Below, one piece after another: positions 703 to 47,544 of a DNA stretch of 64,000 nt. Location: positions 5,875 through 69,874 of the forward strand of contig DATDGX010000138.1 of the NCBI GenBank assembly GCA_036521875.1, in the 5' to 3' direction. The DNA is from Candidatus Binataceae bacterium (lineage in GTDB: Bacteria > Desulfobacterota > Binatia > Binatales > Binataceae). Each line of letters opens with the position of its first letter. Within the stretch, counting starts at the first letter, position 1. The notes beneath the pieces are model-generated. The model was given only the letters and a program-made list of their open reading frames with translations, ran no database searches and was not told the origin of the DNA. Made by a program: the position numbers and the translations under genes.

Positions 703-789
703 TATCGCTCAGAGAAAAATGGGCACGCGGTCTTCGCGATGAAGATCGCGTGCCCTTGCGGACGCTGCGCGGCTCCGCTGGTGAGGAGA

Positions 790-38926: not shown

Positions 38927-39103
38927 ATGAACGCAAGGACAAACGAGGCAAGGTTGGCGGGTCTGGATCGAAGCTCGTATGACATCGAATCGAACGACGG
39001 AACCCGCTCCGCACAGAACGCGCTCCTGAGCGAGTGGCCGGGTGCAATCTTCGGATTGCTGACCCTCGGTTACATCGTGAGTTCGCTGGTGGCGCTGCTC
39101 TAA
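38927..39103 (+). CDS. small tail-anchored peptide, paralog 1 of 4 (58 aa)
   Basis: MNARTNEARLAGLDRSSYDIESNDGTRSAQNALLSEWPGAIFGLLTLGYIVSSLVALL. GGGAGGG lies 6 nt upstream of the ATG. The conserved hydrophobic C-terminus runs to the stop. Confidence 0.55.
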   Translation: MNARTNEARLAGLDRSSYDIESNDGTRSAQNALLSEWPGAIFGLLTLGYIVSSLVALL

Positions 39104-39135
39104 TCACCACGGAACTGACTGACGGAGGAATGACA

Positions 39136-39306
39136 ATGAACGCGACGACCACTGAAGCAAGAATGGCGGTGATGGCGCAAGAAGAGAAGGCGTCGACGAG
39201 TGCGGTGCACTACGCGCAGAACGCGATGCTGAGCGAACTGCCCGGTGTGGTGTTCGCATTGCTGACGCTCGGCTACGTCGTAAGCTCGCTTGTCGCCCTG
39301 ATCTAA
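39136..39306 (+). CDS. small tail-anchored peptide, paralog 2 of 4 (56 aa)
   Basis: MNATTTEARMAVMAQEEKASTSAVHYAQNAMLSELPGVVFALLTLGYVVSSLVALI. GGAGGA lies 6 nt upstream of the ATG. Confidence 0.6.
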   Translation: MNATTTEARMAVMAQEEKASTSAVHYAQNAMLSELPGVVFALLTLGYVVSSLVALI

Positions 39307-39352
39307 TCGCAACGAACTGAAACGACGGAACTGACTGACTGGAGGAATGACA

Positions 39353-39523
39353 ATGAACGCGACGACCACTGAAGCAAGAATGGCTGTGAGCCCGGTTGAA
39401 GAGGAGGCGTCGACCAACGCGGTGCGTTACGCGCAGAACGCGATGCTGAGTGAATTGCCCGGCGTAGTGTTCGGACTGCTGACGCTCGGCTACGTCGTGA
39501 GCTCGCTGATCGCATTGATCTGA
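39353..39523 (+). CDS. small tail-anchored peptide, paralog 3 of 4 (56 aa)
   Basis: MNATTTEARMAVSPVEEEASTNAVRYAQNAMLSELPGVVFGLLTLGYVVSSLIALI. The differences from paralog 2 in the C-terminal half are mostly synonymous. Confidence 0.6.
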   Translation: MNATTTEARMAVSPVEEEASTNAVRYAQNAMLSELPGVVFGLLTLGYVVSSLIALI

Positions 39524-39584
39524 ACCTGAACCTGAATCCGATTGGCGTGAATCGCAAGAACTGTTCTGACTTGAGAGAATGACC

Positions 39585-39767
39585 ATGGACGCAACGACCA
39601 CTGAAGAAAAAATCGCTGCGACGGCGATTGAGAAAAAGGCGTCGGCGGATTGCACGGCGTATTGTATGTCCGCGGCGGACCAAAGGATGTTCCGCCCGAT
39701 GCCCGGCATCATGCTCGAACTTACCTCGCTCGGCTACGTCGTGAGCTCGCTGAACGGGCTCGACTGA
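39585..39767 (+). CDS. small tail-anchored peptide, divergent paralog 4 of 4 (60 aa)
   Basis: MDATTTEEKIAATAIEKKASADCTAYCMSAADQRMFRPMPGIMLELTSLGYVVSSLNGLD. It shares the MxATTTE N-terminus and the LGYVVSSL core. Confidence 0.5.
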   Translation: MDATTTEEKIAATAIEKKASADCTAYCMSAADQRMFRPMPGIMLELTSLGYVVSSLNGLD

Positions 39768-43522: not shown

Positions 43523-43640
43523 CCGGGAGTATGCGCTCCTCAAACCTCACCGAGGTTTCCGGCTTCCCGTCTTATAAAGATGCGCGTGTCGCCCGGTTAG
43601 AAGATAAGGCGGACTGCAGGGGTCTGCACCGTTCTCCGCC

Positions 43641-43697
43641 GGCGACAGCGGAGCCGGGTTCCTGAGTGGTAGTGGGTGCAGGGGTCAGGCCCCTGCT
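43641..43697. repeat. REP-like palindromic element (copy 1 of 4)
   Basis: GGCGACAGCGGAGCCGGG...GGTGCAGGGGTCAGGCCCCTGC forms a hairpin over the trxB stop codon. The same unit recurs three more times at 44835-44995. Confidence 0.6.
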
Positions 43698-44652
43698 ATT
43701 CGCCCGGCTGCTCTTCCAGCCAGCGCTCGGCGTCGATCGCCGCCATGCATCCGGTGCCCGCAGCAGTGACCGCCTGCCGATAGGTGTGATCGACGACATC
43801 GCCCGCCGCGAACACCCCCGCGACGTTGGTGTGAGTCGAGCCGGGCCGCACGATCAAATAACCCAGCTCGTCCATCTCGAGCTGACCCTTGAAGATTGCG
43901 CTGTTGGGCGTATGCCCGATTGCCATGAAGATCCCATGGGCTTTGAATTCGGTGGTCTTGCCGGTCTTCAGATTCTTGAGCGTTGCCCCGGTGACGCCGC
44001 CCTTTTTGTCGCCGTGAATCTCGACCACTACCGAATCGAAAATGAACGCGACGCGCGGATTGTTGTGCGCGCGATCCTGCATGATCTTCGAGGCGCGCAG
44101 CGTGTCGCGCCGATGCACCACCGTCACCTTCGGGGAGAACCTGGTGAGGAAGGTAGCTTCTTCCATCGCGGTGTCGCCGCCTCCCACTACCAGCACGTCC
44201 TTGTCCTTGAAGAAGGCGCCGTCGCAGGTCGCGCATGCGCTCACGCCATAACCCATCAGGCGCGTTTCCGATTCGATCCCGAGCAGCTTGGCCGTGGCGC
44301 CGGTCGAAATGATTACCGACGCGGCGCGGATCACGCTCTTGCCGACCACCAGCTCGAACGGCCGCTTGCCGAGTCTGACCTCGCTCACGTGACCGCTGAC
44401 AAAACGGGTGCCGAAGCGCTCCGCCTGGCGCTTGAACACCTCCATCATTTCGGGGCCCTGCACGCCGTTCTCGAAGCCGGGATAATTCTCTACCTCGGTG
44501 GTGATAGTGAGCTGCCCGCCCGGGGAGTCGCCTTCCACGAGGAGCGGCGAAAGGTTCGCGCGCGCGGTATACAGCGCGGCGGTCAGCCCCGCGGGTCCGG
44601 AGCCGAGAATTACCACCTGGTTGATTTCGTCTTGATTGATTTGCTGAGCCAT
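43696..44652 (-). CDS. trxB: thioredoxin-disulfide reductase
   Basis: Has GSGPAG (FAD), the CATC redox-active disulfide and GGGDTA (NADPH). Confidence 0.95.
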   Translation of the reverse strand: MAQQINQDEINQVVILGSGPAGLTAALYTARANLSPLLVEGDSPGGQLTITTEVENYPGFENGVQGPEMMEVFKRQAERFGTRFVSGHVSEVRLGKRPFELVVGKSVIRAASVIISTGATAKLLGIESETRLMGYGVSACATCDGAFFKDKDVLVVGGGDTAMEEATFLTRFSPKVTVVHRRDTLRASKIMQDRAHNNPRVAFIFDSVVVEIHGDKKGGVTGATLKNLKTGKTTEFKAHGIFMAIGHTPNSAIFKGQLEMDELGYLIVRPGSTHTNVAGVFAAGDVVDHTYRQAVTAAGTGCMAAIDAERWLEEQPGE

Positions 44653-44834
44653 AAACTCCGTTTCAGAGGTCGCGCCAAGAGGCGCGACGCTATCATCAAC
44701 TTATTGTACAGGAGATCGTCTCGTACAGGAGACCTCCTCGTACGGAAAATGTTGACGGCGGCGAACTGATGCACGCTACCGCCGTTAGAACGTTCCCAAG
44801 ACGAGCAGCGCGCCATTCGCTGAACCCCGTTTCC

Positions 44835-44995
44835 GGCGACAACGCCATCCTCGCCTCCGGGTGCAGGGCTTGGCACCCTGCCTTGCCGGCGACAACGGAG
44901 CCGGCTCTTGTGTGCCGGTGGGTGCAGGGGTCAGCCCCTGCCGACAACGGAACTGGATTCTTGCGTCGAGGTGGGTGCAGGGGTCACCCGCTGCC
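44835..44995. repeat. three tandem REP-like palindromic elements (copies 2-4)
   Basis: Units of about 50-55 nt, each GGCGACAACGG-N~20-(G)GTGGGTGCAGGGGTCAGCCCCTGCC, containing the inverted repeat GCAGGGG....CCCCTGC. They lie between trxB and moaC. Confidence 0.6.
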
Positions 44996-45040
44996 TGTAT
45001 ATCTGAACGCGGTCAACGTAAGCTCTTATCCGCTGCTGCG

Positions 45041-45592
45041 ATGCCGGGCAAGAAACAGAAGTCGGATTCGGCGGCGCCGCCAGGCCGCGGCGTGCGAGCG
45101 CTCACTCATCTCGATCGTCGCGGGCGGATCCGGATGGTCGATGTCGGCGACAAACCGGTGACCCGGCGCGAGGCCGTCGCGCGCGGACGAATCGCGATGG
45201 CGCCGGCAACGCTCGCGGCGATTGTCGGCGGCAAGCTCAACAAGGGCGAGGCGATCGCCGCGGCGCGCATCGCCGGGGTGATGGCGGCGAAGCGGACCCA
45301 CGAGCTGATCCCGCTATGCCATCAGATTCCGCTCGAAGTGGTGGAAGTCGATTTTCGCCCCGACCGCGCGCGCTCGGCGCTCGAGATCGAGGCGCGCGCC
45401 GTCACCGCGGCGCGCACCGGCGTCGAGATGGAAGCGATGGTCGCGGTCAGCGCGGCGGCGCTCACCATCTACGACATGGCCAAAGCGATCGACCGCGCGA
45501 TGGAAATCGGTGCGATTCGATTGGTGAAGAAGAGCGGCGGCCGCAGCGGCGAGTTCATCCGTGCGGGCGAACGCAAATGGAGCGCGCGCTAG
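45041..45592 (+). CDS. moaC: cyclic pyranopterin monophosphate synthase
   Basis: ...[19 protein letters not shown]...[31 protein letters not shown]... is the MoaC signature. ATG 45041 follows the REP array. Confidence 0.9.
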
Positions 45593-45627
45593 CTCCATCC
45601 GCGCATGCAAAGCGACGCCGTCACCTG

Positions 45628-46225
45628 AGGGTCTGCGAATTTTTTTTCGAAAGTAAAAGTGAAACGAAAATGCTGCCCGGGTCGCGATCGCTGGGAAACC
45701 ACCGTCCTTCGCTAAATCGACAAAGGACGAACGTCGTCCTGAGAGCCTGTGATTTTTTTGAAAAGTGAAGACGAATTCGATTTGCACCGCGGCTTGGAAC
45801 GGAACCTGAATCACCGTCGTCTCAATGAGTCACCAAAAAAAAGGTGTCATCCTGAGACTCTGTGACTGTTTTTTGAAACCAAAAGTGAAAAATGAAAATG
45901 CTGCCCAGGTCGCGACCGCTGGGGAACCACTGTCGTCCGCTGAGTCAGCAAAGAAGCAACGTCATCCTGAGCGCATGCTGCCGGAGTCGAAGGATCGCTA
46001 CGTACGTATGGTTTGAATACTCAGCGATGGATGTCCACGCGCCGCTGAATCGCCTTGCCGTTGCGTCGATGCCAGGCCGCTCGCATGGCGGTGCAGCAAG
46101 GACACGCGCTGCGCTCATTGAGGCGACAGTGGTTTCCCGGCGTTCGCGACCCGGGCAGCATTTTCGTTTTCACTTTTACTTTTCAAAAACTCACAGACCC
46201 TGAGGATGACCTCCCTTTATTCCAA
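45628..46225. repeat. lower-GC intergenic array of ~115-nt tandem repeats (about 3.3 direct copies) plus one inverted terminal copy
   Basis: The unit begins GTCATCCTGAG..CTGTGA-TTTTTTGAAA..AAAAGTGAAA..GAAAATGCTGCCCGGGTCGCGA.CGCTGGGAAACCAC. Direct copies start near 45631, 45746, 45851 and 45968. An inverted copy lies at about 46131-46220. Confidence 0.6.
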
Positions 46226-46323
46226 CTCATCGGGACGACCGTGGTTTCTCTCTCACCGTAGTCCGGGCAGAATTGGTTTGTTCTCCTGGTACTCATAAGC
46301 TCTGAGATCAAACCCTTGCTCCC

Positions 46324-47544
46324 ATGTCCTCATCGAAACCATCGATGGCCCCTGCTGCGCGCGTGATTCTCAAGCGCGGCCGTGACGGGCCGGTCCGCGG
46401 TGGTAATCCGTGGATCTTCTCGCAGGCGATCGAACGCGTCGAGCCGCCTGCGATCGCACCGGGCGCCGCGGTCGAAGTTTACGACGCGTCGCGCACCCTG
46501 CTCGGCGTCGGGCACTACCACCCCGCCACCACCATCGCGGTGAGGATGCTCGCATGGGGCGCCGCTCCCGACCTGCGCGAGATACTCGCGCGCCGGCTGA
46601 GCAACGCGCTGGAGATGCGCCGCCGGATGATCGCGAGTGACACCGACTGTTACCGCCTGGTCAACGGCGACGGCGACGGCCTCTCGGGAATCGTCGTCGA
46701 TCGCTACGGTGACGTCGCGGTGCTGCAACTGCTCTCAGCGGGCGCCGACGCGATGCGCGACGAGATCACCGCCGAACTCACGCGCCTGATTAATCCGCGC
46801 GCGCTTCTCGAGCGCAGCGTCGGCGCGGTGAGGAGGCAGGAAGGCCTCACCGATCGCGTCGCTTTGCTCGCCGGCGAGCCGGTAGCCGAAACCATCGTGA
46901 GCGAAAACGGAATCCGGCTCGCAATCGATTTCGAGCACGGCCAGAAGACCGGATCATTTCTCGACCAGCGCGAGAACCGCCTGCGTCTTCGCGCGCTGGC
47001 CGCCACCAGCGGAGTAAAGCCCGCGCGGATGCTCGACGCGTGCTGCTACAGCGGTGGTTTCGCGCTCGCGGCGCTTGCGGGCGGTGCGGCGCGCGTGGTC
47101 GCCGTCGACACTTCCGCGCGCGCACTGTCGTGGGCCGCGCGCAACCTCGAGCTGAACGGGCATTCCGCCGGCGCGATCGAATTCGTCCACGGCGAGGCCG
47201 GAAAGTACATGGCGGAGACCGAGCAGCGCTTCGATTTGATCGTTCTCGATCCGCCGCCGCTCGCGCGCAGCCGCGGCGACGTGGAGCGCGCCGGCCGCAT
47301 GTACGTGGAATTGAACGCACTCGCGATTCGCGCGCTCGCGCGCGGCGGCCGGATGATGACCTTCAGTTGCTCGGTGCATTTCCGTGGCGAGGATTTTCTG
47401 CGCGCGGTCCGCATCGCGCAGGCCAAAGCGGGGCGCAACCTCCGGATGCTCGCGCGGCTCGGTCCCGGAAGCGACCATCCGGTGCTGCTCGGCCACGTCG
47501 AGGGTGAATACCTGACCGGGTTTCTGCTCGCCGATCTTGAATAG
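46324..47544 (+). CDS. class I SAM-dependent rRNA (m5C) methyltransferase, RlmI/RlmK-like (PUA + MTase)
   Basis: N-terminal PUA-like region, an MTase core with DxGxGxG-like motif I (LDACCYSGGFALAALAGGAARVVAVD), and D/P-P motif IV (VLDPPP). Confidence 0.75.
   Translation: MSSSKPSMAPAARVILKRGRDGPVRGGNPWIFSQAIERVEPPAIAPGAAVEVYDASRTLLGVGHYHPATTIAVRMLAWGAAPDLREILARRLSNALEMRRRMIASDTDCYRLVNGDGDGLSGIVVDRYGDVAVLQLLSAGADAMRDEITAELTRLINPRALLERSVGAVRRQEGLTDRVALLAGEPVAETIVSENGIRLAIDFEHGQKTGSFLDQRENRLRLRALAATSGVKPARMLDACCYSGGFALAALAGGAARVVAVDTSARALSWAARNLELNGHSAGAIEFVHGEAGKYMAETEQRFDLIVLDPPPLARSRGDVERAGRMYVELNALAIRALARGGRMMTFSCSVHFRGEDFLRAVRIAQAKAGRNLRMLARLGPGSDHPVLLGHVEGEYLTGFLLADLE

Follow-up and report, generated by a model that had tools for sequence, protein, structure and literature searches.

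The gene-free spacer between moaC and rlmI in the window, by which the whole analysed stretch of 64,000 nucleotides of Candidatus Binataceae DNA is meant, is probably selfish DNA: a non-autonomous, nested and gene-less member of a mosaic family of mobile repeats in the Binataceae, associated with a GIY-YIG nuclease gene. On the alignments presented here a family of this architecture exists, and it would be a kind of bacterial mobile element of which no description could be found in the literature search. The family plan, as read from its copies, comprises two facing SE hairpin elements (GTCATCCTGAGCG…CGAAGGATC) and, outside them, one or more bodies of ~100 nt whose outer ends are inverted termini (AGTCTGTGAtttt…) adjoining CTNAG. 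Complete copies carry a gene for a GIY-YIG protein of ~100 aa between the SEs, of which the window copy has the upstream region only. New copies probably enter the CTNAG core of an SE, duplicating CTNAG. Each element has its own SEs beside its termini, and therefore insertions would nest, leaving tandem units of GTCATC-CTGAG plus body that appear as “113-nt tandem repeats”.

The repeat array and its site

The spacer, positions 45593-46323, holds three direct units of ~113 nt, a 36-nt SE hairpin, a centre of ~115 nt and two inverted units (Table 1). The five units were scored by nhmmer with E values from 3e-30 to 5e-20, and no unit copy beyond them was found in the 64-kb window. The repeats described in the sequence-only reading are real, since a 22-nt core occurs three times in the window compared with 0 expected from 100 shuffles. 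From the three to four direct copies counted there, three stand as units c1-c3, whereas the fourth is the hairpin element, which has only its first 11 nt, GTCATCCTGAG, in common with the units; the copy starts proposed (45631, 45746, 45851 and 45968) were displaced by 5-13 nt. The inverted copy noted earlier corresponds to c5, which has a stretch of 45 nt with 93% complementarity to c1, but a second, degenerate inverted unit, c6, had been overlooked. The lower GC content was also confirmed (0.39-0.53 in the spacer, 0.62-0.75 in the flanking genes), and an open reading frame from 45892 to about 46203 was rightly regarded as not credible, with 0 relatives among 5.8 billion proteins. Unit c1 is composed of a remnant of the SE start (GTCAC-CTGAG), a body of ~100 nt that starts with GGTCTGCGAATTTT and contains an AT-rich core, and finally a tail. 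A CRISPR array was rejected, as the units abut without spacers and no cas gene lies in the neighbourhood, and neither plasmids nor phages had a blastn match to the spacer.

Table 1. Features of the window from moaC to rlmI, in window positions
Feature	Position	Strand	Evidence
moaC (183 aa)	45041..45592	+	Pfam MoaC E 4.5e-53; identical 183-aa product on L007 and L008
Left flank, moaC stop codon to element	45593..45619	.	unlike the 5' region of rlmI in relatives (p 0.67-0.93 against shuffles)
Unit c1, subfamily A	45620..45732	+	nhmmer E 3.5e-28; 88% identical to orthologous unit in L008
CTGAG at left outer terminus; candidate target-site duplication	45625..45629	+	direct repeat of 46302-46306
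Unit c2, subfamily B	45733..45845	+	nhmmer E 6e-27
Unit c3, subfamily A	45846..45960	+	nhmmer E 2.8e-30; 79% identical to c1
SE hairpin element GTCATCCTGAGCG-CATGCTGCCGGAGT-CGAAGGATC	45961..45996	+	exact fit to SE pattern
Central region, gene-less	45997..46113	+	homologous to L008 stretch between SE and GIY-YIG start codon (alignments)
Unit c5, subfamily A, inverted	46114..46210	-	nhmmer E 6e-29; inverted repeats with + units
Unit c6, degenerate, inverted, right outer arm, body end 46301	46211..46313	-	nhmmer E 4.6e-20; direct repeats at 112-nt spacing
CTGAG at right outer terminus	46302..46306	+	direct repeat of 45625-45629
rlmI-type rRNA methyltransferase	46345..47544	+	Pfam PUA_3 and Methyltrans_SAM; start annotated at 46345, further in-frame ATG upstream at 46324

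An assembly artefact was ruled out by Logan contigs that reproduce parts of the array: L007 is identical to the window over c1-c3 and the hairpin, and L001 and L002, from two samples, cover c6 and the 3' portion of c5 from 46151 on, differing from the window once, in L001. The second copy, taken previously for a partly degenerate one, belongs instead to a second subfamily. Unit c2 is 87% identical to a strain-variant unit at another locus (L008 640-751), 71-74% to units of the genome MFD01248.bin.1.68 and 65-67% to its neighbours c1 and c3, and the subfamily B form is present both at this second L008 locus and in MFD01248.bin.1.68. Adjacent units are thus not each other's nearest relatives. 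These affinities, the dispersal of the family and the agreement of three independent assemblies refute, as sole explanation, a purely local product unique to this site, formed by inverted duplication together with slippage of one 11-nt GTCATCCTGAG repeat on another, or by misassembly, and leave it hardly any probability, even though direct 11-nt repeats flank each body and could allow slippage, and the copy number is three in one strain and one in another. Slippage may nevertheless add or remove units.

Because the last 16 nt of moaC overlap the start of rlmI, with no spacer, in four of four relatives (L003-L006; 70-74% protein identity), the comparison establishes the spacer as a lineage-specific insertion. 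In the window rlmI, whose product is 100% identical over 399 aa to protein P0001, named Candidatus Binataceae, no longer overlaps moaC; the element would have landed between genes overlapping in all relatives examined and so have uncoupled them. It was also considered whether the short flanks are a duplicated and decayed copy of the rlmI 5' end with the SE-like ATCCTGAAGCG as target, but the alignment scores were no better than those of shuffles.

The array had also been proposed to be a set of small RNAs or riboregulators, or an iterated promoter/operator module. In Rfam 15 no match was found at E<=1 (45000-47000), the fold z-scores of the two strands lay between -0.8 and +1.4, no better than shuffles, and RNAalifold gave a consensus of -0.45 kcal/mol over seven copies with no covariation; the scan gave no promoter-like or terminator-like site. 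A regulatory module of benefit to the host, whether made up of such RNAs, of iterated promoter/operator sequences or of sites bound by proteins (of the IHF type, for instance, within the AT-rich cores), that controls rlmI or stabilises the moaC transcript, is therefore very unlikely, the more so as none of the relatives examined has the sequence at this locus, as it varies between strains and as its units recur at 17 unrelated loci of another genome. What speaks for it are the AT-rich cores of the units with phased GAAA hexamers in a GC-rich genome, and the need of rlmI, once uncoupled from moaC, for some expression signal. The BIMEs of E. coli, which are known mosaic repeats, bind IHF and gyrase and count on the same side.

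A dispersed, nesting family

The SE pattern consists of GTCATCCTGAGCG, a variable insert of 3-30 nt and CGAAGGAT, with a paired ATCCT/AGGAT stem. The insert in the window is 14 nt long and ends in GGAGT, as do the commonest 14-nt inserts, and the pattern GTCATCCTGAGCGN{3,30}CGAAGGAT was found in at least 120 IMG/VR stretches. Because the paired stem forms ATCCT…AGGAT and ATTCT…AGAAT are present in at least 120 stretches each and the mixed forms in 2 and 4, the SE is, judged by this covariation, a selected hairpin. SEs stand in converging pairs, six of them in L083, and a search of SE-rich loci against Rfam yielded no family above its gathering score. The GTCATCCTGAGCG…CGAAGGATC hairpins are frequent in the scanned IMG/VR environmental metagenome contigs and the tails of genes can run into them, as in a GIY-YIG open reading frame whose last residues, DPSLRSG, are coded by the SE hairpin.

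Among 185,579 species genomes scanned, the SE subtype of the window was detected in 90 stretches, nearly all of them of Binataceae. Besides the species of the window, units were detected in one genome, MFD01248.bin.1.68, where unit HMMs found 39-40 copies at 17 of 19 loci on several contigs. The loci share the layout [unit]n-SE> ... <SE-[unit]n, with the units outside converging SEs; an intergenic copy of ~700 bp in L169 (1700-2400) is arranged as in the window. The window's own species has at least two sites, the window locus and the second site of L008. The 22-mer core of subfamily A had 0 matches in species genomes and, in JGI metagenomes, only two chance matches inside a putative glycoside-hydrolase-like coding region, and the unit-end, subfamily-B and SE-subtype patterns had 0 matches each in IMG/VR. 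L008, whose MoaC is 100% identical to that of the window, has one unit downstream of moaC where the window has three, and upstream of moaC a further element bounded by terminal inverted repeats (TIRs), where the window is empty. As these contigs stand, the strains are polymorphic at the moaC-rlmI site in copy number and in gene content.

The unit ends are inverted termini (AGTCTGTGA…) adjoining CTNAG. In the upstream L008 element they read AGTCTGTGAG(T) … CTCACAGACT and are perfect over 10-12 nt, and in L144, L148 and L201 they match over ~20 nt. The outer termini in the window are degenerate (GGTCTGCGAA vs AGCTTATGAG), but c3 and c5, the inner pair, show 82% complementarity along 66 nt. Bodies adjoin CTGAG or CTCAG in 31 of the 63 terminus-like matches, the flank being usually one half of an SE. 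Three complete elements (L144, L148 and L201) interrupt an SE and have a duplicate of CTNAG at each end, which suggests that the family inserts into its own hairpin and nests there. L154 and the window likewise show a direct CTNAG repeat at their two flanks; since CTNAG is palindromic, a duplication of 1, 3 or 5 bp would fit equally. The window array does not resolve into a clean succession of nesting events: unit c5, with the + strand end CTCACAGACC-CTGAG-GATGAC, has GTCATC-CTCAG where the nesting model expects CTGAG.

Of the three suggestions that the sequence-only reading offered side by side, that of a MITE-like or composite element with inverted ends is the one that finds support, in the lineage-specific insertion, the inverted arms, the CTGAG at both outer sides and the dispersed multi-copy family.

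The GIY-YIG gene and the question of mobility

Seven genes for GIY-YIG proteins of ~100 aa (UPF0213/Slx1-like) were found in five genomes, and in these loci, all of them collected via the SE, so that the association has been sampled from this one side, converging SEs bracket all seven. The bracketing of the nuclease gene by SEs is evident from these alignments. The gene matches Pfam PF01541 (E 6e-16), and its relatives in the PDB, 1YWL and 1ZG2, are annotated UPF0213. In the gene-bearing relatives with the same ends (L201, L180, L183 and L008) the GIY-YIG nuclease is the sole gene; L201 keeps it intact within a nested element, and C-terminal remnants lie between or beside SEs in L131, L148 and L172. 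In the cassettes of three genomes the DNA homology runs exactly from SE plus hairpin to hairpin plus SE. Of the three GIY genes of MFD01248, two have a frameshift at an AAAGGG run, which may be a long-read error or decay.

At the locus of the window L008 starts a GIY-YIG gene, 71% identical to the N-terminus from L183 (E 8e-12). This 24-aa start had no match in Pfam, NCBIfam, PDB or plasmid tblastn and was identified by comparison with the full-length genes of relatives. Tblastn with GIY-YIG proteins found none in the window, and in IMG/VR contigs totalling 1.1 Mb, with 170 copies of the SE, neither motif search nor tblastn found one near an SE. The earlier remark that there is no transposase and no cas gene holds for the window, but its transposase part is limited to this copy, as full-length relatives encode the GIY-YIG nuclease.

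We infer that the SE hairpin is cut at CTNAG by the GIY-YIG protein, which would drive the spread of the family and act in trans on gene-less copies. To our knowledge, no GIY-YIG protein is known as a transposase, and it is DDE transposition that has inverted termini and target duplication as its hallmark. The bodies might accordingly be a conventional MITE that happens to prefer the CTNAG of the SE and is moved in trans by an unlinked DDE transposase, with GIY-YIG gene and SE as a separate resident element or a passenger. L144, L148, L201, L154 and the window, in which inverted termini accompany a duplication of CTNAG (or of its inner TNA), agree with this, a possible comparison being the IS1031 group of the IS5 family with its 3-bp TNA duplications, and so does the upstream element of L008, ~255 bp long with perfect 10-12-nt TIRs and a right arm that is just a stub. 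Other Binataceae genomes moreover have the GIY cassette with SE ends and without the 100-nt bodies, and body and cassette are therefore separable. It is nevertheless unlikely that a DDE enzyme moves the bodies, because 682 kb of loci held 0 transposase-size open reading frames between inverted terminus-like sequences, the sole open stretch of at least 150 aa there crossing the repeats themselves, and because an SE lies beside the body in every body-bounded element examined.

More tentatively, and with somewhat less than even chances, the family could represent a new class of mobile element, in which an Slx1-like (UPF0213) GIY-YIG protein, bracketed by hairpins, would be the mobility enzyme, cutting CTNAG at the base of its own hairpin and spreading gene-bearing cassettes as well as gene-less REPIN- or MITE-like derivatives; the repeats of the window would then be scars of self-targeted nesting. 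In the phylogenomic survey of Dunin-Horkawicz et al. 2006 (PMC1564403) the relationships of the Slx1 family fit vertical descent, and selfish GIY-YIG proteins (homing and restriction endonucleases) belong to the UvrC-related lineage, not to Slx1. The literature search returned no paper linking bacterial GIY-YIG genes with REP, REPIN, MITE or TIR elements, and none with the SE sequence.

Known systems and implications

REP/REPIN-RAYT systems (“REPtrons”) and the BIMEs of E. coli are similar in having dispersed short extragenic hairpins as inverted doublets and mosaic clusters with a variable number of units, and in REP/REPIN-RAYT systems a small nuclease-type gene likewise lies between two inverted hairpin copies. 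The bracketed gene of the Binataceae family, however, codes for a GIY-YIG protein of ~100 aa (PF01541, UPF0213) and not for a Y1 (IS200/IS605-type) RAYT, and has several copies per genome; a GTAG tag is absent, and the elements have inverted termini, a duplicated CTNAG and nesting in their own hairpin.

MITEs such as Correia elements of Neisseria and pneumococcal BOX and RUP are also non-coding, ~100 to ~700 bp long and furnished with TIRs and a short duplicated target. They are likewise intergenic and multi-copy, polymorphic in presence between strains and variable in module number, as boxB in BOX, and originate from a gene-bearing relative through internal deletion. In contrast to them, the gene-bearing relative here encodes no known transposase, and the element contains the preferred target in its own hairpin, with the result that copies nest into arrays.

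With free-standing GIY-YIG homing endonuclease genes (phage seg, I-TevI family) the family shares a nuclease gene in selfish DNA, and occupied and empty alleles in one species; the gene itself is missing in the window copy and found in L008 and relatives. Its protein is, unlike theirs, a minimal Slx1-like domain without a DNA-binding extension, its elements lie at many unrelated sites with long inverted ends, and its duplicated target is not produced by homing. Insertion sequences that target REP sequences, such as IS1397 and IS621, have DDE or DEDD transposases and also insert site-specifically into a repeated extragenic hairpin, but that hairpin is not within their own ends.

If the proposed role of the nuclease is true, it would give a biological context to small bacterial UPF0213/Slx1-like GIY-YIG proteins, which are poorly understood, and predicts that such a protein cuts a defined hairpin at CTNAG. 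It would also provide a non-Y1 parallel to REPIN-RAYT, in which hairpin repeat families can pair with a different nuclease. The family would account for the origin of the common GTCATCCTGAGCG…CGAAGGATC hairpins, and its elements would be able to split overlapping, translationally coupled genes, as at moaC/rlmI. They also break short-read assemblies, Logan contigs ending inside the array.

Repeat units of the moaC–rlmI spacer

The 731-bp spacer, which extends from the stop codon of moaC (45592) to rlmI, is best explained as a non-autonomous, nested member of a repeat family associated with a GIY-YIG nuclease gene. Its parts, mapped by direct sequence reading and alignments, are listed in the table, and its GC content falls to 0.39-0.53 (0.62-0.75 in the adjoining genes).

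Repeat units, hairpin element and centre of the spacer (window coordinates)
Feature	Position	Strand
Unit c1	45620-45732	+
Unit c2	45733-45845	+
Unit c3	45846-45960	+
Hairpin element SE	45961-45996	+
Centre	45997-46113	.
Unit c5	46114-46210	-
Unit c6 (degenerate)	46211-46313	-

The repeats far exceed chance: a 22-nt core has three copies in the window and none in 100 shuffles, and an HMM of the unit detected five copies (E 3e-30 to 5e-20) in the 64-kb window and no further one. The shuffles and the HMM bear out the tandem repeats and inverted copy described in the sequence-only reading. Its "fourth copy" near 45968 is indeed a repeat, though not a unit: it is the hairpin element SE, and the sequence common to SE and the units is limited to the first 11 nt of SE, GTCATCCTGAG. 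Tandem Repeats Finder did not detect the array because the copies are just 60-80% alike. An assembly artefact was ruled out, as the array is matched in separate Logan contigs: c1-c3 with SE exactly in L007, and c6 with the 3' part of c5 (from 46151) in L001 and L002, which come from two samples. One base differs between L001 and the window (GAGGTTGAC against GAGGATGAC). Logan contigs of the same samples end at about 46003 (L007) and resume exactly at 46151 (L001 and L002). An exact repeat of at least 31 nt that would account for the break is lacking, which suggests a sampled population mixed for several variants of the centre, some with the gene and some without it.

Two readings proposed from the sequence gained no support. 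Against a tandem small-RNA or riboregulator array, Rfam 15 gave no match at E<=1, the folds of single units, taken on both strands, did not surpass those of shuffles (z -0.8 to +1.4) and RNAalifold of seven copies returned three pairs and -0.45 kcal/mol; against an iterated promoter/operator module, a promoter and terminator scan gave nothing. The spacer's only ORF, already doubted, has no relatives among 5.8 billion proteins. These searches speak against both an RNA gene array and an operator module.

Insertion, strain polymorphism and dispersal

A Candidatus Binataceae bacterium protein matches the rlmI product at 100% identity, and the next relatives reach at most 74%. Four of four loci of such relatives (L003-L006) retain the order GH1 – pyridine-nucleotide oxidoreductase – moaC – rlmI – BNR protein, and each has a 16-nt overlap of moaC and rlmI and no spacer, so the entire spacer is specific to the window's lineage. 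It is an insertion which parted two genes that overlap in all relatives examined. Compared with its relatives, RlmI lacks about 5 N-terminal residues (MAPAARVILKRG, in relatives MAGGVSASAARVILKRG; window 46324-46380), and no Shine-Dalgarno-like sequence precedes the candidate rlmI ATGs at 46324 and 46345.

A strain variant, JGI contig L008, encodes the 183-aa MoaC of the window residue for residue. On its 3' side moaC is followed by one unit (three in the window), then by the same SE and centre and by an ORF start, MPSPVANFYVYVLSSDAGILYIGI, which continues off the contig end and is 71% identical (E 8e-12) to the N-terminus of the GIY-YIG protein of locus L183; the window's centre is homologous to the L008 stretch between SE and this start codon. 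On the 5' side, at a site empty in the window, L008 has a second element of about 255 bp with a c2-type unit, SE, a short centre and a right end, CTCACAGACT, exactly inverse to the left end, AGTCTGTGAG. Units thus occupy at least two sites in the species, and the elements are polymorphic among strains in presence/absence and copy number.

The window's SE subtype (CCTGAGCGNNNGCTGCCGGAGTCGAAGG) was found in 90 stretches in a scan of one genome per species, nearly all of them in soil and peat MAGs titled Binataceae, Binatus or "delta proteobacterium". Unit HMMs detected 39-40 units beside these SEs, all in MFD01248.bin.1.68 (17 of 19 fetched loci); other Binataceae genomes have shorter modules ahead of SE with the same beginning, CTGAG-AGTTTGTGAATTT. 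The family and its recurring layout, [unit+]n – SE+ – 70-500 nt – SE- – [unit-]n, are thereby established, and an intergenic copy of about 700 bp (L169, 1700-2400) is arranged like the window's spacer. Unit c2 shares 87% identity with the unit at L008's other site and 71-74% with MFD01248 units, but just 65-67% with its neighbours c1 and c3, which rules out a recent local duplication as the origin of the array. With the insertion, the inverted units and the dispersed family, the early suggestion of a MITE-like or composite element with inverted ends is supported. Taken by itself, the window's copy belongs with known mosaic repeats such as MITEs or BIMEs; seen alongside the gene-bearing relatives, it represents a new form of them.

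Hairpin element, target site and GIY-YIG gene

The pattern GTCATCCTGAGCGN{3,30}CGAAGGAT matches at least 120 IMG/VR contig stretches, and among the matches listed the insert is 3-4, 12, 14 or 18 nt long and converging pairs are frequent. SE is absent from Rfam. Counted as copies and not as independent events, at least 120 stretches have the paired stem ATCCT…AGGAT and at least 120 the doubly changed ATTCT…AGAAT; the half-changed forms have 2 and 4. The SE stem is under selection, and since G·T is tolerated no better than C·A, pairing at the DNA rather than the RNA level is hinted at. In the IMG/VR contig L083 one half of each of six converging pairs, e.g. 712-744(+)/786-830(-), has ATCCT/AGGAT and the other ATTCT/AGAAT; such halves would mispair with each other, so it is each half's own small hairpin that is kept. 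On L086 SE stands five times in tandem at a spacing of 87 nt. A second small hairpin, TCGCGCGGTCCTCCGCGCG, directly follows SE in most Binataceae genomes (L136-L210) and is missing after the SEs of the window and MFD01248, where GGATCG(A/C) continues differently.

The body of the unit (about 100 nt) starts with AGTCTGTGAtttt and always adjoins CTGAG or CTCAG (CTNAG), beyond which lies either the opening hexamer of SE, GTCATC, or the rest of SE as its reverse complement. Three complete elements each interrupt an SE and have CTNAG at either end: L144 reads GTCATC-CTGAG–element–CTGAG-CGCAGGCTGCC…GGATCC, and L148 and L201 read …GCCTRCG-CTCAG–element–CTCAG-GATGAC. The insertion site of the family is therefore the CTNAG core of SE, of which 1, 3 or 5 bp are duplicated, the palindrome masking the length. 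At the spacer a candidate target-site duplication, CTGAG, stands at both outer ends (45625-45629 and 46302-46306) with non-SE flanks, as in L154. Each element has one SE just inside each body, and insertion at this internal SE would repeat GTCATC-CTGAG-body in tandem, giving the window's "113-nt repeat". The c5 junction is GTCATC-CTCAG, CTGAG being expected, and the right-hand split-SE remainders predicted by nesting are absent in the window, which makes it necessary to assume that its array later underwent deletions or recombination.

By tblastn, SE-anchored loci of five genomes contain seven GIY-YIG genes, all seven bracketed by SE+ 50-130 nt upstream and SE- 15-105 nt downstream. Pfam PF01541 matches the L191 ORF (E 6e-16) and the N-terminal halves of L180 and L183 (about 1e-6); the solved relatives 1YWL and 1ZG2 are annotated UPF0213. 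The intact paralogue of L201 lies inside one of the three nested elements. The L180 (2642-2945, -) and L183 (6698-7001, -) genes of MFD01248.bin.1.68 share a +1 frameshift in an AAAGGG run, which may be a long-read homopolymer error or a common inactivating mutation. In cassettes from three genomes DNA homology runs exactly from SE and a GCGCGG hairpin through the inverted hairpin and SE, with inverted ends of about 55 nt. In L131, L148 and L172 pieces of the gene's C-terminal end remain between SEs or adjoining them, so gene-less copies can arise by internal deletion. The L191 ORF (3718-4023, -) reads through the downstream hairpin, its end …DPSLRSG* being the translated reverse complement of SE (compare the region upstream in L162); gene callers can therefore read SE hairpins into protein tails.

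Because the elements contain no other gene, we infer that the GIY-YIG protein would be the enzyme that cuts SE and drives the spread of the family. Also in favour, the arrangement resembles RAYT/REP systems, in which a gene is likewise bracketed by hairpin repeats. Inverted ends with a duplicated target are the mark of a DDE transposase; they count against the GIY-YIG protein as the engine and favour the main, though less likely, alternative, a conventional MITE mobilised by a transposase encoded elsewhere, but no ORF of transposase size was found between such ends in 682 kb. It also counts against the GIY-YIG protein that no GIY-YIG protein is known to be a transposase and that, in 1.1 Mb of viral contigs, the SEs have no GIY-YIG gene near them. 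In favour of its role, eukaryotic Slx1 is a structure-specific endonuclease according to reference titles in PMC1564403, an activity that fits a hairpin target. Neither the SE sequence nor a link of bacterial GIY-YIG genes with REP, REPIN, MITE or TIR elements was found in the literature searched, of which coverage was incomplete, so that this is absence of evidence only.

Other repeats of the window

An unrelated second family, with units of about 53-60 nt each bearing a terminal GC hairpin GGGTGCAGGGGTCAGCCCCTGCC (window 43616-43696, 44860-44996), has about five copies, which flank a minus-strand oxidoreductase gene (43696-44652). These repeats are missing from the matching intergenic region of L008, where a unit+SE element stands instead; the strains thus differ in the repeats of one intergenic region. 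A 367-aa ORF (43666-44769, +) without a Pfam match is unlikely to be a gene; it overlaps the oxidoreductase homologue of 318 aa on the minus strand. Four tandem repeats of about 217 nt (39036-39756, 77-88% identity) are probably tandem paralogous small genes, given that two 58-aa genes occupy the corresponding position in relatives.
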